Shown here one piece after another: positions 2,811 to 34,960 of a DNA stretch of 64,000 nt. Origin of the DNA: an uncultured Chloroflexia bacterium. Its GTDB lineage: Bacteria > Chloroflexota > Limnocylindria > Limnocylindrales > CSP1-4. Under the pieces are notes generated by a model. That model had not been told where the DNA came from, searched no databases, and was given only the letters and a program-made list of their open reading frames with translations. Location of the stretch: positions 723,841 through 787,840 of the forward strand of contig CAVZVH010000026.1 in assembly GCA_963778645.1 (NCBI GenBank). The letters are read 5' to 3'. How positions within the stretch are numbered: position 1 is the stretch's first letter; the number at the start of each line of letters is the position of its first letter. Both the position numbers and the translations under genes were made by a program.

Positions 2811-4646
2811 TCAACCGCGACAGGCCCCCGCGGGCCGCAGGCGGACCGCTGACACGGCGCCGCCCGGGCCGACGCCAAGGCCGTCGCGACTGACACAAGC
2901 GGCCTCCCCCAGGCGACCGAGCAGCGCGTCGAGGTCCCCGCCGGAGACGACCGGTTCGACCGCCAGGAAGCGCGCGATCGCCCCGGCCTCACCGTCGGCC
3001 GGCGCGGCCAGGTCGAGCCAGGCCATCGCCGCGTCGGCGCTCGCGTGCAAGGGGATCGTCTCCGAAGCGGCGGCCACGGTCGCCGGGTCGACGGCGAACA
3101 CCTCGGCCCGATCCTCCCCGTCGTCGAAGCGCTCGTCGAGGAGGAGGCCGGCAACGTGACCGGCCGCCAGGCTGGCGGCCAGAGCGTCCGGCGTGAACGG
3201 ATGCGGGCCGGACAGGACGAGGTAGCGCGCCGGAGGCATGGCCAGGACCTTCGTCCACGCCGACCGTGTGTACCCGAACAGCTGGCGGTCGCGGAGACCC
3301 ACCCAGACGTACGTCGTGAGGTCGTCGGCGGGGTCGACGCGGACGGCGGGCAGGCTCACCATCTCGACCGAGTCGAACAGGCGCAGCGCCATGGACTCGC
3401 GGTCCTTGAACGTCATCGCGACCCGGTCGCCAGCACTCGTGTTCGCCCTGAGCCAGGCCGCCAGTCGATCGGGCACGAGCGCGCTGGGTGGCCGTCCGGC
3501 GGAGCGCTGGCCAACGACGATGCCGCCAACGAGGCCCAACCCCAGCACGGCCAGGAGGGCCGCGGCGGCGACGCGCCGAGGGCCGGTCGGCGCCCCCGAT
3601 GTCGCTCGGGGCGTCTCGTCGCCGGACGTGGTGCCGGACCGGGCGAGGCGGCGCCGGATCGAGGCCACCGACCATGCCCCGGCGATGCCGAGGGCGGCCG
3701 CGGACAGGACCGCCAGGCCGGCGTAGTTGCGGGCGTTGAGGCTCTGCGATGCCGCATACAGGGCGGCTGGCAACAGACCGGCGGCGGCCGCGACCAGCAG
3801 CCGGGGTCCCCGCTCGGTCCGGGCACGCCAGGCCACCGCCACCCACGATGCCGCGAAGAGGCCGATCAGGACCAGCGCCGGGCGTGCGACCCGAACATCC
3901 AGCCCGACATCGCGGCCCTCGATCACGCCGATCGCGTTGAGCGGGAACAGGTCGCCCGCGCTCAGCCAGACGACTGCCCACCACCAGCCGGCGGTGACGA
4001 GCGCGGCTCCGAGATAGACGCCCAGGTACGTCGCCACCCGTCGTGCGGGTTCGAGGCCGAGCAACGCGAGTGGCAGCAGCGCCAACGGAAGCACCGTCTC
4101 CTTGACCAGGATCGTCAAGCCGAACAGGACACCGGCGAACGCCCACCGGCGTTGCGAGGGACGCCAGACGGTGAGCAGGATCGCGACCACCCCGGCCGTC
4201 TGGGGCAGGTCGATGCGAAGGGACGGCACGAGGCGCCAGACGATCGGTGTCGCGAGCAGCGCGAGCATGGTCCCCACCGCCCCGCCAGGACCGGCCACCA
4301 GCCAGCCGATCCGGGTGACGCCCAGCAGGCACGCCATCGCCAGGACGAGGGCGACGATCCGGGCACCGGTCATGGGGTCGCCGCCGACCACCGTGCTCCC
4401 GGCCGCCAGCAGCAGCCCGTACACCGGCGAGCGCAGCAGGAACGTCGTTCCGGACGGCGTGACCGGCCCGTCACCCGCGAGGACCGACAGGCCGACGAAG
4501 AGGTAGCGGGCGTCATCGGGCGCCACGGGCGACCAGCCGAACAGCGCCGTCCGGAGCAGAACGACGGCGACCAGGGCCGCCCCAAGTCCGATCGCGATCG
4601 GCCAGTCGTCGCGTGCGCGGCGCCGGATCTCGGTCAGGTTCGCCAC
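2811..4646 (-). CDS. Large GT-C (ArnT/PMT-like) integral membrane glycosyltransferase-like protein with C-terminal soluble domain
   Basis: This is the C-terminal 611 codons of ORF 2811..5972, starting at GTG 4644-4646. The upstream part of that ORF is Arg/Pro-rich shadow. There are about 10 hydrophobic segments (DDARYLFVGLSVL, LTILVKETVLPLALLPL), followed by a ~250-aa non-membrane domain. Confidence 0.7.
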   Translation of the reverse strand: MANLTEIRRRARDDWPIAIGLGAALVAVVLLRTALFGWSPVAPDDARYLFVGLSVLAGDGPVTPSGTTFLLRSPVYGLLLAAGSTVVGGDPMTGARIVALVLAMACLLGVTRIGWLVAGPGGAVGTMLALLATPIVWRLVPSLRIDLPQTAGVVAILLTVWRPSQRRWAFAGVLFGLTILVKETVLPLALLPLALLGLEPARRVATYLGVYLGAALVTAGWWWAVVWLSAGDLFPLNAIGVIEGRDVGLDVRVARPALVLIGLFAASWVAVAWRARTERGPRLLVAAAAGLLPAALYAASQSLNARNYAGLAVLSAAALGIAGAWSVASIRRRLARSGTTSGDETPRATSGAPTGPRRVAAAALLAVLGLGLVGGIVVGQRSAGRPPSALVPDRLAAWLRANTSAGDRVAMTFKDRESMALRLFDSVEMVSLPAVRVDPADDLTTYVWVGLRDRQLFGYTRSAWTKVLAMPPARYLVLSGPHPFTPDALAASLAAGHVAGLLLDERFDDGEDRAEVFAVDPATVAAASETIPLHASADAAMAWLDLAAPADGEAGAIARFLAVEPVVSGGDLDALLGRLGEAACVSRDGLGVGPGGAVSAVRLRPAGACRG

Positions 4647-5902
4647 GACAGCGCCATTCGGACGTCCCGCCAGAGCCCGCCGGCGCCGTCCGCGGCCAGG
4701 AGCCGCCAGGCCACGACCAGCGCGATGAGGACGGCCAGGCCGTTGACGCCGAGGGCGTGGGTGCGGGCCACGAAGACGACGAGGAGCGCCCCCGCGATGA
4801 TGTCGCCGGTCCCGTGCCGGCGTCGCGCCAGGAGCGCACCCAGGCGCTCGATACCGACACCGAGCAAGGCGAACAGGCCCAGGCCAGCCGGCCCGAAGTT
4901 CGCCCACGCCTCGCCGACGATCCCGGGCGCCAGGTAGCCCGGCGGATCCTGGGCGGGGAAGACGCGCGGATAGATCCAGTAGCCGAGGTTCGGGATGTCG
5001 TCGCGCCCGACGAGCGGGCCGAGACGCCGGGCCCACGTCAACCCGCCGAAATACGGCTGCTCGTCCGGGATGACGTCCTGGAGCGCCTCGAGCGTGCGCG
5101 GCTGGATCAGGATGACGCGGTTGATCGTGCGCTCGACGGCGAAGGCGAGCTCCCGGCCGGCCGCCTGCTCGTAGGCGCGCAGGATCTGGATGCCGCCGAA
5201 GGCGAGGACGCCCACCACGGCCGCCGTGGCCAGCCATCGCCAGGGCAGCCGCCATCCCGCCAGCCCGACACCGACGAGGAGGACGGCCACGAGCTCCGCG
5301 GCGAGATAGCGGCTCGCGAGGGCGATCTCGAAGGCGAGGAGCGCCACGATGGTCGCGTACGAGGCCAGTCGCCACGCCCGTGGCCGTCCGGCCGCTGTCA
5401 GGACCAGCCCCAGGGCCAGGGCCGGGAACGCCACGCGCAGTTCCTGGACCGTGAGGCCGGTCAGCTCGCTCCGCGCCCCGGTGATGTCGTCGGCCAGGGC
5501 GGGCAGGCCGACTCGGGCGATCGTCGGCAGGATCAGGACCAGTCCCAGCACCGCCAGGCCGATCGCCACGACCGGGCGCCAGTGGCCGGCATCCAGCTGG
5601 CCGTCGCTGTCGGGAATGTCGGTCGCCGGGTGGGCCGGACCCGCCCGCCGGCGCGCGACGCGGTCGCTGATCGCGACACCGAGGGCCAGCGCCAACGTGC
5701 ATCCCGCGACGTAGAGAGCCGGTCCGGTGCGGTCGTCGATGGCGAGCCTGACGCTGCCGATCCCGAAGAAGACCGCGTGCAGGACCAACCAGGCGATCGC
5801 CGGATGCCACACGCCCAGCCCGGTCCGTCGGACGGCCGGCAGGACGAGGCCAGCCGCGGCCACGAAGGCGCCGATGACCAGCAGTGAAACGAGCAGGTTC
5901 AC
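4634..5902 (-). CDS. Wzy-like oligosaccharide repeat-unit polymerase (polytopic membrane protein)
   Basis: 422-aa ORF with a GTG start. It is multi-TM and carries a periplasmic-loop-like segment and PGYLAPGIVGEAWANFGPAGLGLFALLGVG, which is typical of O-antigen polymerases. Its 3' end overlaps the downstream start by 13 nt. Confidence 0.65.
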   Translation of the reverse strand: MNLLVSLLVIGAFVAAAGLVLPAVRRTGLGVWHPAIAWLVLHAVFFGIGSVRLAIDDRTGPALYVAGCTLALALGVAISDRVARRRAGPAHPATDIPDSDGQLDAGHWRPVVAIGLAVLGLVLILPTIARVGLPALADDITGARSELTGLTVQELRVAFPALALGLVLTAAGRPRAWRLASYATIVALLAFEIALASRYLAAELVAVLLVGVGLAGWRLPWRWLATAAVVGVLAFGGIQILRAYEQAAGRELAFAVERTINRVILIQPRTLEALQDVIPDEQPYFGGLTWARRLGPLVGRDDIPNLGYWIYPRVFPAQDPPGYLAPGIVGEAWANFGPAGLGLFALLGVGIERLGALLARRRHGTGDIIAGALLVVFVARTHALGVNGLAVLIALVVAWRLLAADGAGGLWRDVRMALSWRT

Positions 5903-6930
5903 ACTGGCCCCTCGACGCGCTCGGTCTGGAGCGCGTCACTGGCAGCCCGCGCCGCCGCGTCGGCTCCGCCATCGGGCAGGCTCGCCGAGAGGCGAGCGTA
6001 GGAGACCACCCCCGCGAGGCCCAGCGGCAACGTCGAGACGATGCGGAAGCCGAACACGATCGCGACGGCTTCGGCCGACGGGACCCCGGCCACGGTCAGC
6101 AGACCGGCCACGACGAGGTCCGTGGACCCGAGCCCGAACGGCAACAGGGAGACGACGCCGGCCACGATCCCGAGGCCGAGGGCGCCCCAGGCCACGGCCG
6201 GGTCCAGTTCGACACCGATCGCGGCGCCGACCAGCATCAACTGCGCGGTGTACGCGGCAAACACGACCGCCGTCCAGGCCGCGAACTCGAGCGCCCGCCC
6301 CCGATCGACCAGGAGCCGGGCGACGACATCGTCGACCCGGGCGAGGGCGCCACCGGCCGCCAGCCACCGGTCGCGTCCGAACAGGCGGCCCAGGGGTAGC
6401 GCCCGGATCAGCGCGGACGGCCGACCACCGGCGCGATAGAACAGGTTCGGCAGGACCACGATCACGAACAGCGCGACGACGATCACGACGGACGGAAGGT
6501 CCAGCCACCAGGCCGCCCACAACACCGCCGCGCTGGCGCCAAGGAAGGCGATGGCGACAAAGCGCTCGATCAGGACGACCGCCGCGCCGATCCGGTACTC
6601 GACGCCGTGGTGCGCCCGCAGGAGATAAAGCCGCGCCAGCTCGCCCACCGATCCGGGCGTCAGGTTGTTGATGGTGTTCGCGAACGCGGTCATCGGGACC
6701 AGCGGGAGGACCGGGACCGGCCGTCCCGCGGCCGCCAACAGGCCGGCCGAGCGCATCGCCCAGGCCACGAGGATCACCACGTTCAGGGCCAGGGCCAGGA
6801 CGATGGCCCGGCCGTCCGCTGTGCCGAGTCGATCGCCGAGTTCCCACGGCCTCGCCCGCCACGCCACGAGCGCCAGCAACGCGACCGAGATCGTGCCCCA
6901 GACCAGGGGGTTTCGGAGGGCACGGATCAT
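5899..6930 (-). CDS. UPF0104 / lysyl-PG-synthase-TM-like flippase-like membrane protein
   Basis: Last 343 codons of ORF 5899..9114, starting MIRALRNPLVWGTISVALLALVAW. Motifs TAFANTINNLTPGSVGELARLYLL and LLPFGLGSTDLV are present. Its ATG overlaps the upstream stop as ATGA at 6927-6930. Confidence 0.7.
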   Translation of the reverse strand: MIRALRNPLVWGTISVALLALVAWRARPWELGDRLGTADGRAIVLALALNVVILVAWAMRSAGLLAAAGRPVPVLPLVPMTAFANTINNLTPGSVGELARLYLLRAHHGVEYRIGAAVVLIERFVAIAFLGASAAVLWAAWWLDLPSVVIVVALFVIVVLPNLFYRAGGRPSALIRALPLGRLFGRDRWLAAGGALARVDDVVARLLVDRGRALEFAAWTAVVFAAYTAQLMLVGAAIGVELDPAVAWGALGLGIVAGVVSLLPFGLGSTDLVVAGLLTVAGVPSAEAVAIVFGFRIVSTLPLGLAGVVSYARLSASLPDGGADAAARAASDALQTERVEGPV

Positions 6931-9114
6931 CGGGTGCGACCCCAGACGACCGCATCGTCGGTCTCGGTCAGAGTCTGCCAGCCGGGTGGCGGACCGTCGT
7001 CGGGCACGTACCCGGTCACCGACTGGATCGCGATCCGGTCCGCCGCCTCGATCACCAGCGGCTCGCCGGCGGCCAGGGTCACCGCCGATCGCACGACCTG
7101 GAATTCCGCGCTGCCCGTGTAGGGCACGGCGATCTCCTCGACGAGGCGATCTCCCGCCAGGATGCGAATGCGTCGTGTGGCGTCGGCGCCTCCCGGACCC
7201 AGCGCGCCCGCGGTCGCGTCGGGCGGCGTCGGGGCGAGGTCGTCGACCGCGCCGGCGCCACCCGAGCCCGTCTGACCGGTGTCGTCCGGGGTCGCGCCCG
7301 CTCGCGTGAGGACGCGGATCTCGAGCTCGATCGGCTCGGCCGCGCTCGCCAGCGCGAAGGAGAGGCTCGATCCGGGTTCCAGCACGACCGCGTCCCAGCC
7401 GTTGCCCGGCAGGATCCGGGTCGACCCGGTCGTGGCGCCCGGGGCCATCGCGGCCAGCGCGGCCACGCGACTGATGCGACCCACCGCGTCGCCTCGTCGC
7501 CCGAGCACGATCCGGTCCGCGCCATACCGGTCGGCGACCGCCGTCAGGGCCGCCGTGTCGCCGGTCAGGGCCCCGGCGAGGTCCCGTCGGCGCTCGTCCT
7601 GTCCGGTGCCCGTGAACACGGCCGGATCGAAGCCCAGCTTCGCGTAGCCCGGCGGTTCGACGGCCACGACCGAGGCCCCGGTCTCGTACCAGACCAGCGA
7701 CGACCAGTCCTCGTAGGTGAGGATCGTCGGGCGCGGTCCGGTCACCGCTGAGCAGCTCGGACATGTCCGGGACGCGGTCGGGGCCCAGTTGCAGATGGGC
7801 GTAGCGCGGGTCCGTCCAGAGCGTCCAGAGCAACCGCTCAGTGGCGAGGGACGTCGGCACACACGCGAGCAGGAGCACGATCGCCAGGCCGGCCGACACG
7901 AGGCGTGGGCGGGCAACCTGGCGAGCCCGAACGAGCTCGACCAGCGCCACCAGGCCGATGGCCGCCAGGATGAGCCCCGGCTGGCTTGACACCATCCACA
8001 TCCGTTGCGGCCGAAGCGCGTCCTCGAGCGGCCAGGTGGGTTGATAGAGCACCGCCAACGCGAACGGGACGAGCCACCACGCCAGGAGGAGCAGCGGGCC
8101 CTCCGATGGCCGGGGCGCCCATCGGCCGGAGCCGCCCACCGGCGGCCCACTCGCCCGTCGGAGGAAGGACAGCGCGACGCCTGCCCCGACGATCGTCAGT
8201 GGCAGGATCAGCCCGAACTGGATGGGGTACTGCCAGAACCCGATGCGGACCGGCAGCAGGTCCTCGGAGGAATCGATGGAGACCCCGCCGTTCGTGCGGA
8301 TCGTCCCGACGAGGTACCCGAGCCACGGCGTCACGAGGACGGCCGCCACCGCTCCGGTCACGACCAGGGCGCCGATCAGGCGGCCCCAGCGCGACGGGTG
8401 CCGGAGCCCGACGACGACGATCAGGGTCGCCAGCGCGATCGGGATCGGGATCAGCAACTGGATCTGGACGAGCCCGCAGATGCCCAGCAGGACTCCGGCG
8501 AGCGCGGCCCAGGCCATGGTCCGTGAGCCTTCGTCGGTGGCCCGCAGGAAGGCCAGGATCGCGAACGGGAGCAGCCCGAACACCAGGTCGCGCGGATAGG
8601 CCGGGTAGAACGCCTGCCCGACCATGAACATCGAATTGACCCACAGCCGGTCGTCGGAGAGGTCGAACCCGCCGGCGAACGAGGTCAGGACGGCGGCCAC
8701 CAGGGCCACGTCCTTTCGTCCGGTCAGGCGGCGGGTCAGGAGGTAGGCACCGAGCGGGATCACCGGCAACCAGATCAACCCGAGCAGGGTGGTGGCGGTC
8801 GGTGCGTCCGTCCCGAACAGCCGGGCGATCCCCGCGAGCAGGAGGTGGAAGCCCGGCGGGTAATAGGCCGGCAGGCCCGCGTACGGGCCCTCGGCCGGGA
8901 ACGTGCCCAGCAGGATGGTGTTGGTCAGGCCCCAGTGGTAGAGGAGGTCGCCACGGACGTAGAACGGAGCCAGCGCTCGGGCGCCATAGACGGCCATCGC
9001 GCCGACCAGGAGGACGCCGAGCCACCGTTCCGCCCGAGGGATCGTCGCCAGGCGCTGTCGTACACTCCGGACCGATCCCCATACGCGGCGGCCGATCGCC
9101 AGGTCGCTGCTCAC
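6927..9114 (-). pseudogene. GT-C (ArnT/PMT-like) membrane glycosyltransferase-like gene with one frame disruption near 7735-7750
   Basis: The N-terminal membrane domain is in the frame of ORF 5899..9114 (through ...LQLGPDRVPDMSELLSG). The C-terminal domain continues in the frame of ORF 6927..8150 (PRPTILTYEDWSSLVWYETGASVVAVEPPGYAKLGFD...). Architecture parallels 2811..4646 and 9145..11259. Confidence 0.65.
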
Positions 9115-9144
9115 GCGCCCTGTTCGAGGTAGGACCGACGCTCC

Positions 9145-11259: not shown

Positions 11260-11269
11260 ACTGTCGTCG

Positions 11270-12808: not shown

Positions 12809-12867
12809 CACCGGGAGCGAGTCGACGCCGCGGGTCGCGTCGTCTCGCGGCGCTACACTTCCCCGGC

Positions 12868-14818: not shown

Positions 14819-14834
14819 CGTTGGCCCGACGCCT

Positions 14835-15875
<1,041 letters not shown>

Positions 15876-16026
15876 TCAAGCCCAAGGACTCGACGGTCCC
15901 GCGACTGGACAGGCATGGCATCGTTGGTCGCGACCGTCGGCGGGTCACCCGACCGACGCCGCGTCGAGGGAGGCCGCGGATCCATGGACGACACCGCGAT
16001 GCGCGGGGCACGACCCGGAGGCGATC

Positions 16027-16764: not shown

Positions 16765-16782
16765 GACGCGGCCGGGACGGAT

Positions 16783-26605: not shown

Positions 26606-28170
26606 CCGGGCAGATCGTGCCCCCCGACGAAACCCCTGTGAGCGGGGTGGACGGGTCGGTCGCTGCGGACGACCTGGCAGGGACGGGCACGCGGACGATC
26701 GGTCGACAAGCGATGCTGAACGTGGGGAGCGTCCTGCTGGCAGGCGTGTACACGATCTGGCTGACGTCCTACCTGCTCAGTTGGCTCGGCAGCGCAGGCT
26801 ACGGCGCCTGGGCCACGATCACCGCTGTCCTGACCCCGCTGATGGTCCTCGATGCCGGTCTGGGGCTCCTGGTGGTCCGCGCGGCCGCGGGTCACGGCAA
26901 CCGCGAGACCGAGTCCGCGATCGAGGTCACGACGGCCCATGGGCTCTACCTGGGCCTCGGGACCATCGGCCTCATCGCCGGGATCGTCCTCGGGTTCGTG
27001 CCCGGCGCGTTGCTCGGGCTGTCGGACGCCGATGCCCAGCAAGCCCGGTTGACGGCCTGGACGCTGGCCGCCGACTTCGCCCTGATCATCGGCACGAGCG
27101 CCTTGCCGGGCCTCCTCCGGGGACGTCGCCGCTACGGCGCGCTCATGGGTGCGTCGCTCGTCCAGGTCGTCAGCGGTGTGGCGTTGACGATCGTGTTCGT
27201 GCCGATCATGGGGCTGGTCGGCGCGGCGCTCGCACAGCTCGTCTCACACGCGATCGGCAGGATCGTGCAGCTCGTCCTCGTGCGCTGGTTGGTGCCGTGG
27301 TTCTCGCCGGTGCCACGACCGCCCCGATGGGCGTACCTTCGGACCGTGCTGCGGTTCTCGGGACCGCTGATCGTGATCTCGATCGCATCGCAGATCAGTT
27401 TCTCGACCGACGTGGTCGTGGTCGGCGCCATCGCTGGCGCCACGGCCGCGAGCTCGATCGCGATCGGTGCTCGGCTGCCGATCCTCGCGGTCTCCCTGCT
27501 GTCGGTAGCCACGGACGTGCTGTTCCCGGTCTTCGTGCAGGAGGAACGGCGCGAGCCCCGCCGGCCGCCGGCACTCCTGCGGCGTGCGCTGTTGACGGCC
27601 GGACTGATGAGCGGCTGCGCGTTTCTGTTCCTGGCCTCGGCGCGGACCGAGATCCTCGCCATCTGGGTTCCAGGCGTCGACCCGATCGCCGGCACGGTCT
27701 TCGCGATCTACTGCGCGACCTGGGCGATCCACGGACCCGCGCATATCCTCGCGCTCGTGGTCATCGCGCATGATCGGCACATGCTCCTGGCCCCGATCGT
27801 CCTGGTCGAGTCGGTCGCCAACCTCGCGCTGAGCATCGGCCTCGTCCTGGCCATCGGGCCAGTCGGCGCGGCCATAGGCTCCTTGATCGCGGTCGGGATC
27901 TCGAACGGCATCGTGCTCCCCATCGTGACCCGAGCACGCATCGGGATGGGCGTCGGCCGGATCATCGTGGCATCGGCCGCCGGCCTGCTGGGTGGTGGGC
28001 TGGTCGCAGCGCTCGCCTGGGGGATCGTCGAGGTTGCCGCGCTCGAAGGCGCAGCGAGGCTCATCACCCAGGCCGCCGTCACCGCGACGCTCGGTCTCAT
28101 CGCCCTGGTCATCGCCTGGAGTGGCGTACGCTCGGTCCTCGGGACCCGCGGGCTGTGGCCGTCCCGATGA
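26602..28170 (+). CDS. Wzx-type oligosaccharide flippase (MOP superfamily)
   Basis: GTG 26602 overlaps the upstream stop as GTGA. It is in frame with ORF 26311..28170, 522 aa, with about 12-14 TM segments. It has LNVGSVLLAGVYTIWLTSYLLSWLGSAGYGAWA and RTVLRFSGPLIVISIASQISFSTD. Confidence 0.75.
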   Translation: MTGQIVPPDETPVSGVDGSVAADDLAGTGTRTIGRQAMLNVGSVLLAGVYTIWLTSYLLSWLGSAGYGAWATITAVLTPLMVLDAGLGLLVVRAAAGHGNRETESAIEVTTAHGLYLGLGTIGLIAGIVLGFVPGALLGLSDADAQQARLTAWTLAADFALIIGTSALPGLLRGRRRYGALMGASLVQVVSGVALTIVFVPIMGLVGAALAQLVSHAIGRIVQLVLVRWLVPWFSPVPRPPRWAYLRTVLRFSGPLIVISIASQISFSTDVVVVGAIAGATAASSIAIGARLPILAVSLLSVATDVLFPVFVQEERREPRRPPALLRRALLTAGLMSGCAFLFLASARTEILAIWVPGVDPIAGTVFAIYCATWAIHGPAHILALVVIAHDRHMLLAPIVLVESVANLALSIGLVLAIGPVGAAIGSLIAVGISNGIVLPIVTRARIGMGVGRIIVASAAGLLGGGLVAALAWGIVEVAALEGAARLITQAAVTATLGLIALVIAWSGVRSVLGTRGLWPSR

Positions 28171-28892
28171 GTGTCCGAGTCCTGCAGCGGCGACCCGACA
28201 TCGAAGCGGCCGCGGTGCGCCTGAGCGATCGCGGCCTACAGCCGCGGCGGGGAGACGGCGACCTCGCCTGGTGCGTGCGTTTTGTTCTCCGGACCGGCCA
28301 TCGGCCGCGCCCGCCCGATGCCATCAAGTCCTGGGACGTCGAACACACGCTCGCCGCGATCGAGCAGCACGTCACCGCTGACGAGCGCGTCGTCGATCTT
28401 GGTGCCGAGAACTCGGCTGTGCTGTTCGCCCTTGCCCGGCTCGGTTACCGGGAGCTCGACGGTGTCGACCTCAACCCGGACCTCGCTGTCGCCCCTCGGC
28501 GGGACCGGATCAACTACCACGTGGGCGACTTCCACTCGATGCCCTACCTGCCGAATGGGTCATGCACGGCCGTCACCGCCATCTCCACGATCGAGCACGG
28601 ATGGCGAGGGTCCGAGCTGCTGCGGGAAGTCGCGCGCGTGCTCCGTCCGGGCGGGATCTTCGTCGCCTCGACCGACTACTGGCCGGACAAACTGGACACC
28701 TCCGACCGGGCCATGTTCGGGATGCCCTGGACGATCTTCAGTCGGGCGGAGATCATCGGCTTGCTGGCCGAGGCGGCGTCGGTCGGCCTCGTCCCGGTCG
28801 GCGACGTCGAGCTCGATGCGGCGGAGCCGGTCATCGACTGGAACGGCCGGCGCTACACCTTCGTCCACATCGTGCTTCGCAAGGCCGGCTGA
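28167..28892 (+). CDS. Class I SAM-dependent methyltransferase
   Basis: ATG 28167 overlaps the upstream stop as ATGA. Motifs are VVDLGAENSAVLFALARLGY, AVTAISTIEHG and LRPGGIFVASTDYW. Confidence 0.7.
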   Translation: MSVRVLQRRPDIEAAAVRLSDRGLQPRRGDGDLAWCVRFVLRTGHRPRPPDAIKSWDVEHTLAAIEQHVTADERVVDLGAENSAVLFALARLGYRELDGVDLNPDLAVAPRRDRINYHVGDFHSMPYLPNGSCTAVTAISTIEHGWRGSELLREVARVLRPGGIFVASTDYWPDKLDTSDRAMFGMPWTIFSRAEIIGLLAEAASVGLVPVGDVELDAAEPVIDWNGRRYTFVHIVLRKAG

Positions 28893-28910: not shown

Positions 28911-30083
28911 TCAGTTCTCGACGCGGAACTCCGCGCGGTGCCACACCTCGATCCCGCGACCCCGGATGACGTTGAGCCAGCCCAGCGCGAACGCCGCGTT
29001 CACGACGGCGAACGAGCGGGCGAAGGCGACGAGCCGAGGCGGCCGCCGGCCGGCCCCGATGATGAGGTGCGCGACGCCTGCCAGGAGCACGCCGAGGACT
29101 ACGGCGATCGGCACGGCGAGGTAGGCGGGCGAACCGCCAAGAGTGCCCAGCCATAGCCCCGTGATCGAGGCGAGGGCGATGAACCAGGGCGTCGCCCAGC
29201 GGAGCAGCTTGTGCGACCAGATCGCGAGGGCCGGACCCGGATGGCGCCAGGGCGCCAGCTTGCGAACCATCGAGAGGTTCGCCCGGATGCCCCGCGTGGC
29301 GGTGCGCGTGCGATTGCGGAACTGCTCGCGCAGGCCGCTGATCGGACGATCCGTCGCGATCGCCGCCGGGACGTACACGACGAGGCCGCCGGCCTCACGC
29401 ACGTAGAGCGGCAGCAGATGGTCCATCGAGGCGGTCAACGGCACCGGCCGGTAGACCACCCGACGGACCGCCAGGAGCGCGCCGGTCACGGCGGTCAGGA
29501 CGCCGGCCCGGCTCTCCATCTCGCGGACCCGACGCTCGTAGCGCCAGTAGAGGCCCTCCTGCGCCGATGTCGCCGTGGCGCCTTCATCGCGCCACTCCAG
29601 TCGACCCGTCGCACAGCCGACGCGTGGGTCGCGCAGCGCCTCCGCCAGCGCGGCCAGGCAACCTGGCGCGAACCGGGTCTCCGCATCGGTCAGCACCACG
29701 ACGTCGCCGCGGGCGGCCTCGAACAGGGCCGCCTGGGTCGCGGTCTGGCCGCCCCGCGGCAGCGCCAGCAGCCGCACCTGGGGGTCCTGGGCCGCCATCG
29801 CCGCCACGATCGCTTCGGTGGCATCGGTCGACCCGTCCGAGCCGACGAGGACCTCCGCGATCCGGGCGCCGCTGTGCGTCTGGGCGAAGGCGTCCTCGAT
29901 CCGATCGGAGATGTGGTCGGCCTCGTCGTGGACGGCGATCGCGATCGACAGCGTCGGCGGTTCGTTCGTGCGTTCTGGGACGACCGGCCTCTTCCGGGCG
30001 AGCAGCCAGACGGTGAGCGGGTAGCCGAGGTATACCCAGACGAGGGCGGCGATCGAGGCCCAGAACACGATCTCGGCGAGCAC
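28911..30083 (-). CDS. Membrane-anchored GT2 glycosyltransferase (synthase-like topology)
   Basis: 390 aa. It has an N-terminal TM, a GT-A core (LSIAIAVHDEADHI, VLVGSDGSTDAT, VVVLTDAETRF) and a QxxRW-like stretch EQFRNRTRTATRG. About 4 C-terminal TM helices follow. Confidence 0.75.
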   Translation of the reverse strand: MLAEIVFWASIAALVWVYLGYPLTVWLLARKRPVVPERTNEPPTLSIAIAVHDEADHISDRIEDAFAQTHSGARIAEVLVGSDGSTDATEAIVAAMAAQDPQVRLLALPRGGQTATQAALFEAARGDVVVLTDAETRFAPGCLAALAEALRDPRVGCATGRLEWRDEGATATSAQEGLYWRYERRVREMESRAGVLTAVTGALLAVRRVVYRPVPLTASMDHLLPLYVREAGGLVVYVPAAIATDRPISGLREQFRNRTRTATRGIRANLSMVRKLAPWRHPGPALAIWSHKLLRWATPWFIALASITGLWLGTLGGSPAYLAVPIAVVLGVLLAGVAHLIIGAGRRPPRLVAFARSFAVVNAAFALGWLNVIRGRGIEVWHRAEFRVEN

Positions 30084-30100
30084 GCGCAGAGCCTACGCGC

Positions 30101-31282
30101 TCAGCGCTCCCACGGCAGGTCGGGCCACCAGGTCCGCCAGCGTCCGACGAGCCGGCTGGCTTCGGCCGATCGGGTGTGGGCGGCGGCGAAGACATGGGCT
30201 CGCCGGCGCCGATCGTCGATCGCGGCCGCGTCCATCGACTGCAGGCGTTTCCACGCCGCGAGGACCGCCTCGGCCTCGGGTGCGCGGATCGGCTCCAGGA
30301 GGTCCGCCGCGACCAGCGCCGCGACGGCCCCGGCAGGCACGGCAAGCACGGGCAGGCCGACCGCGAACGCATCGAGCACGACCTTGGGGAAGCCTTCGGC
30401 CGGCGACGGGAAGACGAAGGCATCGGCGGCCGCCAGACGGTCGAGGTACGACACGCGATCGGCGACGTAACCGAGCCACCGGATCCGATCGCCAGCCCCC
30501 GACGACGTCGCGAGCTCGCTCAGGCGCTCCCGGTCCGGCCCGTCGCCCAGGATCTCGAGCTCGAGCGCCGGATCGGCGGCCACCGCGGCGATCATCGATT
30601 CGAGCCCCTTGCCGGCGGCCAGCCGTCCGGCCCAGGCGAGCCGGATCGGGCGTCCGTCGGATCCGGGTGCCCACGCTCGGGCGTTCGGATCACGCAGTTC
30701 CTGCGGCTCCACCAGGCTGGCCACGACTCCGTCGCCATGGACGACTCCGTCACCGACGACGACGCGATGCCCGCCGACGCCGGCCAGCCGACCGATCGCG
30801 TCGTAGCCGAGGCCGATCAGCCCGGCCCCGATGCGAGCGACCCCGCGGTACCTGGCGCCGGCCACGTCGGCCGCGCTGCCGGCGACCCACACGAAGCGAG
30901 GCGTGCCGGCTCGACGCGCGATGATCGCGGCCAGGGTCGCGTTCGACGCCGGGACCTTCAGCCAGAGGAGGTCGGCCTCGCCGATGGCGCGTCGCAGCGT
31001 GGACCGGTTGGCGCCGAGGAGGCCGGGCAGGTGACGGAGGTAGCCGGCGATCCCCTCGAATGGCGCCGTGCCGACCACCTGGATCCGGGGATCGACGGGC
31101 TGGGTGGCCGGCGGCGTCGCTGCGTCGCGCAGGGGCACGCACGAGATGATCGAGGCGACCGGCGATCCGGGCAGGTCCAGCAGACCCGCCACGAACCGCT
31201 GGAACGTGGCGTTGACCGGGTAGATCCGCCCCTCCCACGCCAGGTGCGGGTTGTCGTCGACCACGACCAGGGCGATGCCCAC
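30101..31282 (-). CDS. GT4-like glycosyltransferase
   Basis: C-terminal 393 codons of ORF 30101..32455, from GTG 31280-31282, 2 nt after the upstream stop. Motifs are VGIALVVVDDNPHLAWEGRIYP and PSPAEGFPKVVLDAFAVGLPVLAVPAGAV. Confidence 0.7.
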   Translation of the reverse strand: MGIALVVVDDNPHLAWEGRIYPVNATFQRFVAGLLDLPGSPVASIISCVPLRDAATPPATQPVDPRIQVVGTAPFEGIAGYLRHLPGLLGANRSTLRRAIGEADLLWLKVPASNATLAAIIARRAGTPRFVWVAGSAADVAGARYRGVARIGAGLIGLGYDAIGRLAGVGGHRVVVGDGVVHGDGVVASLVEPQELRDPNARAWAPGSDGRPIRLAWAGRLAAGKGLESMIAAVAADPALELEILGDGPDRERLSELATSSGAGDRIRWLGYVADRVSYLDRLAAADAFVFPSPAEGFPKVVLDAFAVGLPVLAVPAGAVAALVAADLLEPIRAPEAEAVLAAWKRLQSMDAAAIDDRRRRAHVFAAAHTRSAEASRLVGRWRTWWPDLPWER

Positions 31283-31284
31283 GC

Positions 31285-32769
31285 TCAGCGCTCCTCGCCC
31301 GGCTCGCGCTCGCCGATGACGAGATCGGCCGCGCCTTCCCCGCCGCGCAGCCCGACGATCGGCCCGTGACGTCGACCGGTAAGCCGGCCGACGATCGCCC
31401 GCAGCGCGGCCACCAGCGCCACGATGTCGGACCGACGGATCACCAGGGTCTCCCCCCAGCCCCGGCCGGACAGCCGGTGGAAGACGATGAGCGTGAGAGC
31501 CGCCGTGGCCAGGTAGGAGATCGACGAGGCAGCCGCCGCGCCGCTGATCCCGTAGGCCGGAATGAGCACGAGGTTGGCCGCGATGTTGATGACCAGCCCG
31601 GTCACCATGATCAGCGTGCTGGTCCCCGGGCGTCCGCCCCCGACGATGTAGCGCGACAGGACCGCCACGACGCTGTACGCGACGATGCCGGGCAGGATGA
31701 GCCGGAGCGCCACGCCCGCATCGGCGAAGGCCGAGCCATAGACGAACCGGACCAGCCGCGGGCCGATGATGAACGCCGGGACCGCTGTCACGAGCGCGAC
31801 GGCGATCGTGGTCCGGGTCAGGACCGACGCGATCCGGCCCGCATCCGCCTTGGGGTCGACGGCCCGGCTGAACATGACCGTCCCGAGGGCGTTCGGGACG
31901 TACCAGAGCGTTTCGGCGAGGCCGCTCGTGACCGAGTAGATGCCCGTCTGGCGGACGCCCAGGATGGCGTTGACGAGGAACGCATCCGAACGGAACTGGA
32001 GCCGCTCGGCGAGCGCGCCCGGCAGGGATCGCGCGCCGAACCGCAGCTCCTCGACCAGGAGCGGCATCGACGGTCTGAAGCCGAGACTCCCGTCGCGGGC
32101 GGCGACCCACAGGATGAGCGCGCCCGTCGCCCCCAGGGCGACGAGGTTGAGGAACAGGGCCAGGTCCAGGCTGAGCCGGGCGATCGCGGCGGCCGCGAGG
32201 ATGAAGAGCAGCAGGAGCCCCCGTCGCGCCACGCGGATGAGGCTGTAGTCGACCACGCGCTTCCGTCCAAGGAGGGCGTACAGGCCGATGCCGAAGAAGA
32301 GTTCGCCGGGCAGCGCCAGCGCGGCATACGTGAACTGCGCCGCGGAGAGGTTCGGGATGAGGATCGCCAGCGGTCCGTCGGGCCGCGTGTTCGTCGGCAG
32401 GCCGTACAACCAGCCCGACAGCACGACCGAGAAGCCGCCGACGACCGCGGTCCACAGGATGGCGTTGGCCATCCCGCGCCGCGCCGTCTTCTGGTCACGA
32501 CCGGCCACGACGGCCAGCGCCTGGTCCATCCCGACGCCGACGAGCAGGGCCGCCAGCTGCGAGTAGAGGAGGACGAGCGCAAACCGTCCCTTGGCCGATG
32601 GGCCGAGCAGGCGGGCCAGCGCGATGTCGGTCGCGAAGATGAGGACCGCCAGCCCGAAGCGGGTGACGATGGTGACCAGCGCGTCGCGCAGCAGCGGCGA
32701 CGGGCCGGCCACCGCCGGCGGCCCGGGCGCCGTCGGAGCGGCGACCGCGTCGGCCGCTGGCTCGCTCAT
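31285..32769 (-). CDS. Wzx-type oligosaccharide flippase (MOP superfamily), second copy
   Basis: ATG 32767-32769 within ORF 31285..33372, 494 aa, multi-TM. It has LLRDALVTIVTRFGLAVLIFATDIALARLLGPSAKGRFALV and LRFGARSLPGALAERLQFRSDAFLV. Confidence 0.75.
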   Translation of the reverse strand: MSEPAADAVAAPTAPGPPAVAGPSPLLRDALVTIVTRFGLAVLIFATDIALARLLGPSAKGRFALVLLYSQLAALLVGVGMDQALAVVAGRDQKTARRGMANAILWTAVVGGFSVVLSGWLYGLPTNTRPDGPLAILIPNLSAAQFTYAALALPGELFFGIGLYALLGRKRVVDYSLIRVARRGLLLLFILAAAAIARLSLDLALFLNLVALGATGALILWVAARDGSLGFRPSMPLLVEELRFGARSLPGALAERLQFRSDAFLVNAILGVRQTGIYSVTSGLAETLWYVPNALGTVMFSRAVDPKADAGRIASVLTRTTIAVALVTAVPAFIIGPRLVRFVYGSAFADAGVALRLILPGIVAYSVVAVLSRYIVGGGRPGTSTLIMVTGLVINIAANLVLIPAYGISGAAAASSISYLATAALTLIVFHRLSGRGWGETLVIRRSDIVALVAALRAIVGRLTGRRHGPIVGLRGGEGAADLVIGEREPGEER

Positions 32770-32782
32770 CGGCCGGCTGCGC

Positions 32783-33760
32783 TCACTCCGAACCGGACGC
32801 CGCGTGGGGAGTGACGCCGGCCAGGGCCGGCTCCGCGAGGGCCGTCCTGAACCAGGCCGCGGTCCTCGCCAGCCCATCGTCCAGGCCGACCGTGGCGCGA
32901 TAGCCGAGGACCCGCGCGGCCTTCTCGACCGCGGCCACGTTGCGGCGGACGTCACCGGCCCGGGCCGGCCCGTGGACGACCTCCAGCTCCCGTCCCACGG
33001 CACGCCCGACGCCCGAGGCCAGTTCCTCGATGGTCGTCTCGATCCCGGTCCCGGCCTGGAAGAGCTCGCCCGCGACGCGGTCCTCGGGGGCATCGAGCGC
33101 GGCCGCGATGGCCGACGCGAGGTCGTCGACGAAGACCAGGTCGCGCGTCTGCTGCCCGTCGCCGTGGATCGTGATCGGCTCGCCGGCGATCGCGGCTCGC
33201 AGCCAGGCCGCCACCACGCTGCGCTTGTGCAGCGAGTTCGGCCCGTAGGCGTTGGAGAAGCGCAGTGAGCAGGCGGCCAGGTCGTAGGTCGCGGCATACG
33301 CGCCGGCATACGCTTCGATGGCCAGCTTGGAGGCGCCGTACGGCGAGACCGGGTGGGGCAGGTCGGACTCATCGCTGGGTGGCTCGTGGTCGCCAGCCGC
33401 GGCGTTGGAGGATGCGAACACGAACCGGCGGACGCCGGCCTGCCGGGCGGCCTCCAGCAGCCCGACGGACCACGCCACGTTCGCCTCGAAGGTGCCGAGC
33501 GGGTCGCGCACGGAATCGTCGATGCCGGCCCGCGCCGCCAGGTGGACGACGGCGTCCACGCCGGTCACGGCCTGCCGGACGGTCGCCGGATCGGCGAGCG
33601 ACCCGCGCTGGAGTTCGTGCGGCGTGCCAGACAGGTACGCCGCGTGCCCGATCGAGAGGTCATCGAGGATCCGGACGCGGTCGCCCCGGGCGGCCAACCA
33701 CCGGGCGAGGTTGGAGCCGATGAAGCCGGCGCCCCCGGTCACGAGGACGGTTCGCGTCAT
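32783..33760 (-). CDS. NAD-dependent sugar-nucleotide epimerase/dehydratase (SDR)
   Basis: 325 aa. Motifs are VLVTGGAGFIGSNLARWL and SPYGASKLAIE (YxxxK). Substrate is not assignable from sequence alone. Confidence 0.8.
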   Translation of the reverse strand: MTRTVLVTGGAGFIGSNLARWLAARGDRVRILDDLSIGHAAYLSGTPHELQRGSLADPATVRQAVTGVDAVVHLAARAGIDDSVRDPLGTFEANVAWSVGLLEAARQAGVRRFVFASSNAAAGDHEPPSDESDLPHPVSPYGASKLAIEAYAGAYAATYDLAACSLRFSNAYGPNSLHKRSVVAAWLRAAIAGEPITIHGDGQQTRDLVFVDDLASAIAAALDAPEDRVAGELFQAGTGIETTIEELASGVGRAVGRELEVVHGPARAGDVRRNVAAVEKAARVLGYRATVGLDDGLARTAAWFRTALAEPALAGVTPHAASGSE

Positions 33761-33775
33761 GGGGCGTCGGCCGCG

Positions 33776-34960
33776 TCAGACGCGGACCGACTCGCGCGGC
33801 GGCTCGGGGACCCAGCGGACGTTCTGGACCAGTGTGGCCGGATCGATCAGCTGCTGGTGGGCCTTGATCTTGGCGAGCATCGTGTCGATCAGTTCCTCAC
33901 CGAGCAGGTGCGGCTCCAGCCCGAGCCCCAGGAGCTTGGTGTGCTTGGCGTTGTAGTAGTGCTCCTCGAGCTCCTTGCGCGGATTGGTCGTGTGCTCGAT
34001 GGCCACGTCCCAGCCAAGATGCTCGCCCGCGGCGCGGACCCGTTCGGCCAGCTCCAGGACGCTGAACTGCTCCGTGAACTGGTTGTAGACCCGCAGCTCA
34101 CCCCGGTCGGCCGGGTTCGCAGCGGCCAGGCCGATGCACGCCACGGTGTCGCGGATGTTCAGGTAGCCGCGCGTCTGGCCGCCTTTCCCGTACACGGTCA
34201 ACGGATGCCCGATGACCGCCTGGACGCAGAATCGGTTGAGCGCCGTCCCGAAGACCTCGTCGTAGTGGAAGCTGGTCGCCAGACGTGGGTCGAGTGCGGA
34301 TTCATCGGTCTCGACGCCGTACACGACGCCCTGGTTGAGATCGGTGGCGCGCAGGCCCCAGATCCGGCAGGCGAAGTGGATGTTATGGCTGTCGTGGACC
34401 TTCGAGAGGTGGTACATCGAGCCGGGCGTCTTGGGATAGAGGAAGGTGTGCTGGCGACCGTTGTGGTCGACGGTCAGGTAGCCCTCCTCGATGTCGATAT
34501 CGGGCGTGCCGTACTCGCCCATCGTGCCGAGCTTGACCAGGTGGATCTCCGGGTCGATGTCGCGGATGGCGAACAGGACGTTCAGGTTGCCGATGACGTT
34601 GTTGGCCTGGGTATAGGCAGCGTGACGGACGTCGATCATCGAGTACGGCGCGGACGGCTGCTCCCCGTAGTGGACGATCGTGTCCGGCCGGAAGCCGCTG
34701 ACCACCGACTCGACGAAGGCGTAGTCGGTCAGGTCGCCGACGAAGAGCTCGATGTCGTGCTCGGTGACCTCGCGCCACGCCCGGACGCGTTCGTGCAGCG
34801 TCGGGATCGGGAATAGGGGGCGGACGCCAAGCTCCAGTTCCCACTGGCGCTTCGCGAAGTTGTCGACGACGGCCACGCGCCCACCGGCGCGCGAGAACGC
34901 CATGGCAGTCGGCCAGCCCAGATAGCCGTCGCCGCCGAGGATCAGGATCCTGTCGGTCAC
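33776..34960 (-). CDS. sqdB: UDP-sulfoquinovose synthase
   Basis: 394 aa, nearly collinear with the SqdB/SQD1 signature as I recall it. Shared stretches are ILILGGDGYLGWPTA, KLGTMGEYGTPDIDIEEGYLTV.HNGR, YHLSKVHDSHNIHFACRIWGLRATDLNQGVVYG, FGTALNRFCVQAVIGHPLTVYGKGGQTRGYLNIRDTV, VYNQFTEQFSV and ELEEHYYNAKHTKLLGLGL. Confidence 0.9.
   Translation of the reverse strand: MTDRILILGGDGYLGWPTAMAFSRAGGRVAVVDNFAKRQWELELGVRPLFPIPTLHERVRAWREVTEHDIELFVGDLTDYAFVESVVSGFRPDTIVHYGEQPSAPYSMIDVRHAAYTQANNVIGNLNVLFAIRDIDPEIHLVKLGTMGEYGTPDIDIEEGYLTVDHNGRQHTFLYPKTPGSMYHLSKVHDSHNIHFACRIWGLRATDLNQGVVYGVETDESALDPRLATSFHYDEVFGTALNRFCVQAVIGHPLTVYGKGGQTRGYLNIRDTVACIGLAAANPADRGELRVYNQFTEQFSVLELAERVRAAGEHLGWDVAIEHTTNPRKELEEHYYNAKHTKLLGLGLEPHLLGEELIDTMLAKIKAHQQLIDPATLVQNVRWVPEPPRESVRV

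Follow-up and report, generated by a model that had tools for sequence, protein, structure and literature searches.

A modular cell-envelope glycan locus with a predicted sulfoquinovose cassette in an uncultured Limnocylindria-type Chloroflexota bacterium

Introduction

In the scheme described for the rhamnose wall polysaccharides of streptococci and lactococci, an enzyme of the GacI/GacJ type loads a sugar onto undecaprenyl monophosphate. The lipid-linked sugar is then flipped for direct use by a GT-C glycosyltransferase, or cytoplasmic transferases first extend it; in the second case, a Wzx-type flippase moves the resulting oligosaccharide across the membrane, after which it is polymerised and GT-C enzymes graft it onto the rhamnan. 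Priming of the rhamnan itself takes place on undecaprenyl diphosphate, and LCP proteins anchor it. GacJ, the prototype of the DUF2304 family, activates GacI, which makes GlcNAc-P-undecaprenol, and its homologue Rv3632 likewise stimulates PpgS. Natural GacJ-GacI fusions are known, and an engineered WpsB-WpsA fusion with DUF2304 placed N-terminal to the GT2 domain is active. Here, we describe a glycan locus at positions 2811-34960 of a 64,000-nucleotide stretch of contig CAVZVH010000026.1 (assembly GCA_963778645.1; "the window"), in which genes of this kind accompany a cassette encoding a predicted UDP-sulfoquinovose synthase (SqdB).

A recent review treats sulfoquinovose as phototroph-derived and as the headgroup of the sulfolipid sulfoquinovosyl diacylglycerol (SQDG). 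The Agl3-dependent N-glycan of the archaeon Sulfolobus acidocaldarius is a non-lipid sulfoquinovose glycoconjugate and, to our knowledge, the only established one. D-Rhamnose supply by Gmd and Rmd occurs together with methyltransferases in the Pseudomonas common polysaccharide antigen and in the S-layer glycans of Aneurinibacillus. If the envelope is monoderm, as described for Chloroflexota, a lipopolysaccharide context would not be expected.

Judged by its conservation, the span consists of three modules (A, B and C) with different evolutionary behaviour, and on this reading it would be the intact core of a larger cell-envelope glycan locus, a super-locus spanning at least 40 kb. By analogy with the systems above, we consider it somewhat better than an even bet (probability about 0.55) that the product is a peptidoglycan-linked heteroglycan, assembled like the streptococcal and lactococcal rhamnose wall polysaccharides and carrying a unit with sulfoquinovose that GT-C enzymes would graft.

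Gene content, host lineage and modular structure

The GC content of the window is ~70%, which makes raw lists of open reading frames (ORFs) meaningless. Genes were called with a codon log-odds model trained on ORFs with a high GC content at third codon positions (GC3), complemented by a check of GC3 and frame consistency, and families were assigned by Pfam, NCBIfam and PDB sequence searches. The span contains 26 coding regions, which are densely packed and frequently joined by 4-bp overlaps of start and stop codons. Twenty-four are uninterrupted, with GC3 values of 0.80-0.93, comparable to those of housekeeping genes. Nearly all domain matches have E-values between 1e-5 and 1e-156, far beyond chance. 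The inventory comprises six GT4 glycosyltransferases (16783-17907, 18920-20068, 22421-23617, 24330-25475, 25472-26605 and 30101-31282), three GT2 enzymes, two Wzx flippases, two Wzy_C proteins, gmd and rmd, four methyltransferases, an NDP-hexose 4-epimerase, SqdB, a UPF0104 protein, three GT-C proteins and one orphan protein with 10 transmembrane (TM) helices. The span is thus confirmed as a real, dense and large gene cluster for a cell-surface sugar polymer.

The initial annotation had arrived at nearly the same inventory, and the family assignments upheld it except for small counts. It had listed 27 genes, 25 of them intact, and seven GT4; six of the latter stand, and the seventh is the 10-TM protein at 4634-5902, which lacks a glycosyltransferase signature. 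The three GT2, including the DUF2304 fusion at 12868-13920, and the two Wzx flippases (26602-28170 and 31285-32769) were found again, and a Wzy_C protein was confirmed at 20904-22424 (49.6 bits). Its gmd, rmd, epimerase and sqdB genes were recovered through TIGR01472, 2pk3/6x3b, Epimerase and SQD1 matches, and its four methyltransferases, UPF0104 protein and three GT-C proteins through domain and fold searches.

The proposed host, a high-GC Gram-positive-type organism, did not hold. In a scan of one genome per species with the flanking MBL-rhodanese gene (42825-44285), matches came almost exclusively from Chloroflexota. The best 65 (58-88% identity) were all metagenome-assembled genomes (MAGs) of Chloroflexota or 'Candidatus Limnocylindrales', and other phyla gave weak matches only (37-47% identity) plus one fragment of 196 residues. 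The best loci share 85-88% identity with the window in the MBL-rhodanese and 84-96% in sqdB, the epimerase, Wzx and the GGDEF neighbours. Named homologues of the 10-TM protein (g02) and of a 704-residue GT-C protein (g04) likewise belong to Chloroflexota or Limnocylindrales. An actinobacterial origin was ruled out, as the close relatives are all Chloroflexota/Limnocylindrales MAGs. We conclude from these similarities that the host, an uncultured soil bacterium represented by a MAG, is of the Limnocylindria type within the Chloroflexota and not a high-GC Gram-positive.

For every protein of the window, tblastn and phmmer were used to search 82 related loci, and further pieces of three related genomes (L084, L085/L086 and L087; also L088) brought the comparison to about 90 loci. 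The modules extend over 1699-13920 (C), 13901-28892 (B) and 28911-34960 (A). The GC content of module B is 0.695, versus 0.718-0.721 in modules A and C. The order rhodanese gene, module A, variable genes, module C and LCP/primer genes repeats in two other genomes (L001+L084 and L088+L085) at 83-93% SqdB identity. A check of the window revealed no tRNA genes or long flanking repeats at the module borders. The borders of the initial annotation, 2811 and 34960, needed revision at both ends: on the left, module C already begins at 1699, and on the right, a second, decayed cassette reaches to ~42700. Its description of one unrecognised pathway is better replaced by three modules, each with a described counterpart (GacIJKL/WpsAB-WpsJ, Wzx/Wzy and SQD1/Agl3).

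Module A, a conserved cassette around SqdB

Module A comprises five genes:

28911-30083, minus strand: g21, membrane-embedded GT2 of the Glyco_tranf_2_3 type (4.8e-19), with TM helices at both ends
30101-31282, minus strand: g22, GT4 of the cassette, 393 aa (6.9e-20), candidate sulfoquinovosyltransferase
31285-32769, minus strand: g23, Wzx/MurJ-type (MOP) flippase of the cassette (Polysacc_synt_3 2.4e-10, MurJ 1.4e-7)
32783-33760, minus strand: g24, SDR protein of the NDP-hexose 4-epimerase family (Epimerase 5.6e-62)
33776-34960, minus strand: g25, predicted UDP-sulfoquinovose synthase (SqdB/SQD1), 394 aa (SQD1 1i24/1qrr, E 7e-156)

The g25 protein aligns over its full length with Arabidopsis SQD1 (1i24/1qrr; query 3-383 to chain 12-392). 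The catalytic set of SQD1, which we take to be T145, Y182, H183 and K186 (1qrr numbering), that is, Thr/Tyr/Lys plus an SQD1-specific His, is matched by T146, Y183, H184 and K187 of g25, and the motifs GTMGEYG and YHLSKVHD are conserved in the alignment. Against the NCBIfam equivalog NF041015, g25 reached 462.1 bits, below the cutoff of 575. For the identity of the protein, we regard the SQD1 match as much stronger evidence than this shortfall. On the strength of the alignment, g25 is assigned as a true UDP-sulfoquinovose synthase. It has more than 8000 homologues, the top 120 of which share at least 81% identity.

The neighbouring epimerase, g24, groups with UDP-hexose/UDP-GlcNAc 4-epimerases; its best PDB matches are 6wjb (2e-53) and the UDP-glucose 4-epimerase 4zrm (7.4e-50), and in relatives it invariably lies next to sqdB. 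The GT4 g22 gave generic GT4 matches only, with no specific NCBIfam model, and lacks the N-terminal Glyco_transf_4 match seen in the other GT4s of the locus.

The cassette is inherited as a block. The sqdB gene occurs in 18 of the 82 related loci, and all 12 sqdB-positive loci with sufficient flank carry the complete series sqdB, epimerase, Wzx, GT4 and GT2 in one order. Two loci, L036 and L056, have sqdB without the other cassette genes. Each of g21-g24 has orthologues in 12-15 of the 18 loci that carry sqdB, and none occurs in the 64 loci that lack it; all 12 orthologues of g21, all 14 of g23 and those of g22 lie in sqdB-positive loci. Because the orthologues of g21-g24 are confined to loci with sqdB, module A behaves as one unit that is gained or lost together.

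A full-length SqdB homologue with 58% identity also lies beside a GT2 gene on the Pseudonocardia autotrophica plasmid pPA12743CP (L083, 281945-283093), with a MurJ-annotated flippase ~4 kb away, so that the same kind of association recurs. As a closer comparator the plasmid was discarded, since its neighbouring genes proved not to be orthologues of g21-g23 (BLASTP E 0.002, 4e-4 and 2.8).

Module C, polyprenyl-phosphate and GT-C genes

Module C begins with five genes on the minus strand, followed by three on the opposite strand:

1699-2670, minus strand: conserved protein of 323 aa with a single TM helix near its N-terminus, the last gene of the module
2811-4646, minus strand: g01, GT-C glycosyltransferase (PMT_2 / GT39-83-like), 611 aa (PMT_2 28.8 bits, cutoff 26.1)
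4634-5902, minus strand: g02, orphan membrane protein with 10 TM helices, candidate Wzy-like repeat-unit polymerase
5899-6930, minus strand: g03c, UPF0104 / LPG_synthase_TM "flippase-like" membrane protein, 343 aa (PF03706 3.1e-28, 99.6 bits)
6927-9114, minus strand: g03ab, GT-C-like DUF6541 protein, ~727 aa when stitched (DUF6541 30.5 bits in the stitched form, cutoff 29)
9145-11259, plus strand: g04, protein of predicted GT-C fold, 704 aa (AlphaFold2 model and Foldseek), candidate partner of the GacJ-GacI fusion
11270-12808, plus strand: g05, frame-disrupted Wzy_C (O-antigen ligase/polymerase-like) membrane protein (25.9 bits, below the cutoff of 31.7)
12868-13920, plus strand: g06, DUF2304::GT2 fusion of the GacJ-GacI / WpsB-WpsA type (DUF2304 1.9e-8, Glycos_transf_2 4.7e-23)

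In g06, DUF2304 covers residues 11-110 and Glycos_transf_2 residues 127-285, the same order as in the engineered WpsB-WpsA fusion. The best NCBIfam matches are PpgS (4.5e-32) and AglJ, and the best PDB matches are ArnC and DPMS. Thus, g06 is a candidate polyprenyl-phosphate glycosyltransferase with a fused DUF2304 activator. Three GT-C proteins are encoded alongside it, namely g04 (by fold), g01 (PMT_2 above cutoff) and the stitched g03ab (DUF6541 above cutoff), and potential flippases for a lipid-linked sugar are the two Wzx proteins and the UPF0104 protein.

The AlphaFold2 model of g04 (pLDDT 84.8, pTM 0.89) matched exclusively GT-C enzymes in Foldseek at E<=1e-3: STT3, AglB, DPY19, AftA, PglB, ArnT and AftD. 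PMT_2 matches occur in 19 of the 32 members of the g04 family. No PDB entry was matched in sequence searches with g01, g04, g21 and the g04 family profile, and BLASTP detected no pairwise similarity between g04 and g01. The latter has about seven or more TM helices followed by a soluble C-terminal part, and orthologues in L084 and L085.

The 10-TM protein g02 matched no Pfam (even at E 10), NCBIfam or PDB entry by sequence or profile, and no glycosyltransferase signature was found in it. With a pLDDT of 59.5, its AlphaFold2 model was poor, and the Foldseek matches were meaningless. The family is narrow and lineage-restricted, comprising 111 clusters (50% identity threshold) in a set of 1.84 billion proteins. 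Three of 10 distant members pass PF01901 (O_anti_polymase, putative O-antigen polymerase), and the homologue P0133 carries a fused UPF0104 domain. This transitive evidence, via distant homologues, makes g02 a candidate divergent Wzy-like polymerase. The family also shares a highly conserved, extracytoplasmic-looking stretch, PRTLEAL...GEAWANFG.

Of the remaining proteins, g03c scored 65.7 bits against TIGR00374 (cutoff 43.2) and has orthologues of 338-344 aa; its ATG at 6930 overlaps the upstream stop codon as ATGA. The g03ab protein has 8 TM helices and a soluble C-terminal domain. Its gene is frameshifted near 7742-7745, with the switch of coding frame at ~7727-7800, and the orthologues are single ORFs of 684-697 aa (L085 and L087) or 624 aa (L084). 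In g05, the coding frame flips repeatedly, with many 1-nt indels relative to L084; an intact orthologue in L085 encodes 487 aa with Wzy_C. The 1699-2670 protein gave no Pfam family even at E 10. It is 73% identical to its L084 counterpart, which is syntenic after the g01 orthologue, and proteins of 304-321 aa take this position in L085 and L087. The start codons of the divergent GT-C genes g03ab and g04 lie 30 bp apart (9115-9144; again in L085, 6907-6936), leaving scant room for conventional promoters or leaders.

The gene order of module C is common to L084, L085/L086 and L087, the last without a called g01. Directly after the module, all three genomes carry an LCP ligase gene, a gene for a CoA_binding_3+Bac_transf priming transferase and a second LCP ligase gene; the Bac_transf primer is present in L085 and L087, and in L084 only the CoA_binding_3 part was found. 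A UDP-glucose dehydrogenase gene comes next after the second LCP gene in L084 and L085.

Module C genes also meet the sqdB cassette directly. The g06 orthologue abuts the cassette GT2 gene in L010, L011 and L031, from which module B is absent, and in L010 and L011 a GT-C gene adjoins this junction; in L010 it is the g04 orthologue that lies beside the g06 orthologue and the cassette. The compact loci L010 and L011 consist of exactly seven genes, for GT-C, the GacJ-GacI fusion, GT2, GT4, Wzx, epimerase and SqdB. In L007 and L012, it is an orthologue of g02 that borders the cassette.

Module B, the variable block

Between the conserved modules lie gmd, rmd, four methyltransferase genes, five GT4 genes, one GT2 gene, and genes for a Wzy_C protein and a Wzx flippase:

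13901-14818, minus strand: g07, GDP-4-keto-6-deoxy-D-mannose reductase, Rmd-like (PDB 2pk3 4.1e-47, 6x3b 2.2e-45)
14835-15833, minus strand: g08, GDP-mannose 4,6-dehydratase, Gmd (PF16363 1.6e-128; TIGR01472 420.6 bits, cutoff 415)
16027-16764, plus strand: g09, S-adenosylmethionine (SAM) methyltransferase (Methyltransf_9/23, 3.1e-14)
16783-17907, minus strand: g10, GT4 glycosyltransferase (Glycos_transf_1 4.7e-24)
17904-18800, minus strand: g11, GT2 glycosyltransferase, weak match (Glycos_transf_2 24.5 bits, cutoff 23.3)
18920-20068, plus strand: g12, GT4 glycosyltransferase (2.7e-31)
20065-20781, minus strand: g13, SAM methyltransferase (Methyltransf_23 3.4e-15)
20904-22424, plus strand: g14, Wzy_C protein with 11 TM helices (49.6 bits, cutoff 31.7), candidate polymerase of the variable unit
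22421-23617, plus strand: g15, GT4-like protein (Glyco_trans_1_4; stp1-like, TIGR03087 8.4e-34, below cutoff)
23671-24333, plus strand: g16, SAM methyltransferase bearing a zinc ribbon at its N-terminus (Methyltransf_11 1.4e-11; CPACG...CPGCG motif)
24330-25475, plus strand: g17, GT4 glycosyltransferase (3.2e-22)
25472-26605, plus strand: g18, GT4 glycosyltransferase (5.5e-35; 77% identity to the L059 orthologue)
26602-28170, plus strand: g19, Wzx flippase of the variable block (Polysacc_synt 1.2e-15; 73% identity to the L059 orthologue)
28155-28892, plus strand: g20, SAM methyltransferase (8.8e-13; 77% identity to the L059 orthologue)

With Gmd above its equivalog cutoff and the reductase closest to Rmd, a supply of GDP-D-rhamnose by g07 and g08 is supported. 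The top PDB matches of g07 are two characterised GDP-6-deoxy-D-lyxo-4-hexulose reductases; alternatively, g07 may be a variant that forms GDP-6-deoxy-D-talose. A gmd+rmd pair lies beside the g06 orthologue in L087 as well, and the pair may belong to the conserved part of the locus. Elsewhere, module B is variable: other genes take its place in L001/L084 and L088, and in L059 only g17-g20 are visible, the remainder lying beyond the fetched flank. The Wzy_C domain of g14 is equally compatible with a polymerase, a ligase and an O-oligosaccharyltransferase. The start of g16 is probably the ATG at 23671; its Pfam match begins at profile position 43, and inspection by eye revealed no canonical GxGxG motif I. 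Taken as a whole, this Wzx/Wzy block with D-rhamnose supply and methyltransferases is ordinary strain-variable surface-glycan genetics.

Homologues of the weak GT2 g11 occur at 43-44% identity in L003, L027 and L043. In L043, three of them stand in tandem (84-2794), next to a GT4 gene related to g12.

Proposed pathway and comparison with known systems

The order of steps that we infer is the following. SqdB would convert UDP-glucose and sulfite into UDP-sulfoquinovose, and g24 would either supply a second UDP-hexose or epimerise the sulfosugar. The GT4 g22, as the presumed user of UDP-sulfoquinovose, and the membrane GT2 g21 would assemble a short unit containing sulfoquinovose on a polyprenyl carrier, a mono- or a diphosphate, and Wzx g23 would export this lipid-linked unit. 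The fusion protein g06 would load a sugar onto polyprenyl monophosphate. Module A, the fusion and one GT-C enzyme would together build and graft a sulfoquinovose-containing side unit; we propose this because L010 and L011 hold exactly those parts and nothing else. A seven-gene unit of their type would need no diphosphate primer. Module B would add a strain-variable, D-rhamnose-containing, O-methylated repeat unit by the Wzx/Wzy route, and the other GT-C and Wzy-like proteins encoded in module C would join or decorate the chains outside the membrane. In relatives, a Bac_transf phosphoglycosyltransferase encoded next to module C would prime the resulting wall polymer, and LCP ligases encoded there would attach it to peptidoglycan, its presumed acceptor. 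Attachment to peptidoglycan is suggested by the two LCP ligases and the Bac_transf primer that flank module C in those genomes. The walls of Chloroflexus contain a peptidoglycan-bound polysaccharide rich in O-methyl sugars, which would fit the methyltransferases and LCP ligases. The composite envelope-glycan locus with cytoplasmic and extracytoplasmic glycosylation claimed by the initial annotation is supported by the encoded enzymes, and its prediction of an anionic, methylated heteroglycan appears reasonable.

The closest described systems are GacI/GacJ/GacK/GacL of S. pyogenes and WpsA/WpsB, WpsG and WpsH/WpsJ of Lactococcus. Shared with them are a GT2 with a DUF2304 activator (fused here), a Wzx-type flippase, extracytoplasmic GT-C enzymes, a rhamnose-based wall polymer, LCP proteins (here in relatives) and the division into conserved and strain-variable parts. 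The likeness is one of family and gene set. In contrast to these systems, the locus would supply GDP-D-rhamnose through gmd/rmd instead of dTDP-L-rhamnose; it lacks an ABC exporter, has three GT-C proteins, a UPF0104 protein and the sulfoquinovose cassette, and belongs to the Chloroflexota and not the Lactobacillales. The PpgS (Rv3631)-Rv3632-Rv3779 system of M. tuberculosis, which adds galactosamine to arabinogalactan, also resembles it: the GT2 part of g06 has PpgS as best NCBIfam match, and a GT-C enzyme completes the transfer. However, g06 reached 111 bits against an equivalog cutoff of 370, and the proteins fused here are separate there.

With the SQDG pathway (SqdB/SqdX in cyanobacteria, SQD1/SQD2 in plants, SqdBDC in Rhodobacter and Sinorhizobium), the locus has in common a full-length SqdB with its catalytic residues and a GT4 in the cassette, but the cassette adds a 4-epimerase, a Wzx/MurJ flippase and usually a membrane GT2, and it is linked to polyprenyl-phosphate and GT-C genes. 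Sulfolobus Agl3 is likewise a UDP-sulfoquinovose synthase and feeds a lipid-linked glycan that is transferred by the GT-C enzyme AglB. That system is archaeal, dolichol-based and protein-targeting, however; g25 is closer to plant SQD1 than the NF041015 cutoff would demand, and the present locus does not point to glycosylation of proteins. Wzx/Wzy loci for O-antigens and capsules share Wzx, Wzy_C, several GT4 and GT2, gmd+rmd, methyltransferases and a lower-GC variable centre between conserved modules; they differ from the window in having a primer and a chain-length regulator. Finally, the D-rhamnan of the Pseudomonas aeruginosa common polysaccharide antigen uses a Wzm/Wzt ABC transporter, which the locus lacks.

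Several observations weigh against the proposed wall glycan. The window contains no LCP ligase gene, and a thiamine pyrophosphate enzyme lies left of 1699 instead; the two LCP genes directly follow module C in the three related genomes. No priming phosphoglycosyltransferase (Bac_transf or MraY-like) was found among the scanned ORFs of the window, its Pfam scans showed no chain-length regulator family (Wzz/PCP), and it holds no acceptor protein gene. Only three of 12 informative loci have g06 directly beside the cassette, and g22, the presumed sulfoquinovosyltransferase, has generic matches only. Two genes of module C, g03ab and g05, are frame-disrupted. With regard to co-regulation, the genes of the span form at least nine transcription units with alternating orientation.

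Alternative explanations

Module A might instead make a membrane sulfolipid, SQDG or another sulfoquinovosyl glycolipid, as a phosphate-sparing measure, perhaps together with a hexosyl-diacylglycerol from the membrane GT2 and the epimerase, while the adjacent polysaccharide genes serve a separate function. Bacterial SqdB is known for SQDG synthesis, where it is paired with the GT4 SqdX, and the single GT4 in the cassette has a suitable size (393 aa) and generic matches that would be compatible with this role. Moreover, g21 is of the Glyco_tranf_2_3/GT21 type, a group that includes lipid glycosyltransferases, L036 and L056 carry sqdB without the remaining cassette, and phototrophic Chloroflexus contains SQDG. 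However, the cassette includes a conserved flippase of the MOP family (Wzx/MurJ), all 14 orthologues of which lie in sqdB-positive loci, and SQDG synthesis does not require a flippase. The absence of the N-terminal Glyco_transf_4 match from g22 and the repeated contact of the cassette with polyprenyl-phosphate-dependent genes of module C also argue against a sulfolipid, and we regard this explanation as unlikely.

It is rather improbable that the locus glycosylates a surface protein of an S-layer or sheath, through a Wzy_C O-oligosaccharyltransferase (g05 or g14) or a GT-C protein resembling oligosaccharyltransferases (OSTs) or PMT. Wzy_C is a domain of O-oligosaccharyltransferases of the PglL/WsaB type, and the best structural matches of g04 are the OSTs STT3, AglB and PglB. 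The TM-scores to OSTs are 0.43-0.50, however, no better than those to DPY19 or AftA. By eye, no motif of the WWDYG type follows the last TM helix of g04; a stretch reading TWDFY lies in a mid-protein loop according to consensus and model, and was rejected as such a motif. The sulfoquinovose N-glycan of Sulfolobus is borne by surface proteins, and the Rmd match 2pk3 comes from Aneurinibacillus, in which D-rhamnose S-layer glycans occur. Against this, the window holds no S-layer gene or other acceptor gene, and the two LCP genes and Bac_transf primer flanking module C in relatives point to attachment to peptidoglycan.

That the span is a partly decaying set of unrelated glycan genes without a coherent product, with real frameshifts in g03ab and g05 and a heavily degraded 7.7-kb cassette next door as signs of its loss, is very unlikely, given that 24 of the 26 genes are uninterrupted with GC3 values as in housekeeping genes, that unrelated genes of the window are split too, which suggests assembly indels, and that the disrupted genes are intact in other genomes, with synteny kept across 83-93% SqdB identity.

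Significance of the sulfoquinovose cassette

Every module is of a described kind, and the locus is not categorically new. The unusual part is narrower than the 32 kb claimed at first: an SqdB fixed in a Wzx/glycosyltransferase cassette that is linked to GT-C machinery, in place of the usual sulfolipid enzyme. Our literature searches returned no described bacterial UDP-sulfoquinovose synthase fixed in a flippase/transferase cassette coupled to GT-C, and nothing that connected sulfoquinovose synthesis with Limnocylindria or Chloroflexi, or flippases with UDP-sulfoquinovose. A genomics paper on Limnocylindria mentions nothing on wall glycans. The conservation of an SQD1-type synthase in such a cassette across many MAGs of an uncultured class would point to an unrecognised bacterial use of sulfoquinovose, and module A would make Limnocylindria a possible non-phototrophic source of this sugar.

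More tentatively, and as less likely than not, we suggest that Limnocylindria put sulfoquinovose, or its 4-epimer of the sulfofucose type, into a peptidoglycan-linked wall glycan by a polyprenyl-phosphate/Wzx/GT-C route, with a CstB-like enzyme possibly feeding sulfite. If true, the product would be an anionic wall polymer that is sulfonated and free of phosphate, comparable in function to teichoic and teichuronic acids, and the first bacterial non-lipid sulfoquinovose glycoconjugate. Loci of the L011 type offer a compact seven-gene unit.

Right flank and frameshifts

To the right of module A lies the following feature:

34961-42700, minus strand (methyltransferase on the plus strand): decayed second glycan cassette with Wzx, Wzy_C, methyltransferase, GT4-DUF1972 and a gmd paralogue

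The genes of this 7.7-kb region are broken into many frame pieces, and its GC content is 0.667. Stitched translations match GDP_Man_Dehyd (2.6e-104), DUF1972 and Polysacc_synt, and the gmd paralogue shares 72-78% nucleotide identity, with offsets of 1-2 nt, with the intact gmd gene at 14835-15833. The region is an insertion relative to close relatives, in which sqdB lies ~100 bp from the rhodanese gene.

Frameshifts also split non-glycan genes of the window (48036-48809, 54731-56417 and 58335-59740): PolX retains only its HHH domains, and DUF885 and a DAO oxidoreductase are each spread over two ORFs. Related contigs from long-read MAGs show similar fragmentation. Because these unrelated genes are split as well, the disruptions of g03ab and g05 may be assembly indels as readily as signs of pseudogenisation.

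The gene at 42825-44285 encodes a CstB-like persulfide dioxygenase-rhodanese (PDB 3tp9 8.5e-94; 3r2u 4.8e-53). In 18 of the 82 related loci it lies divergently beside sqdB, and in the other 64 it occurs without sqdB. Since CstB-like enzymes make sulfite or thiosulfate and SqdB needs sulfite, it is possible that this enzyme feeds SqdB. Beside it, at 44363-47925, lie two diguanylate cyclase genes (GAF-GAF-GGDEF and GAF-GGDEF), a position kept in relatives; control of the adjacent glycan locus by c-di-GMP is conceivable.

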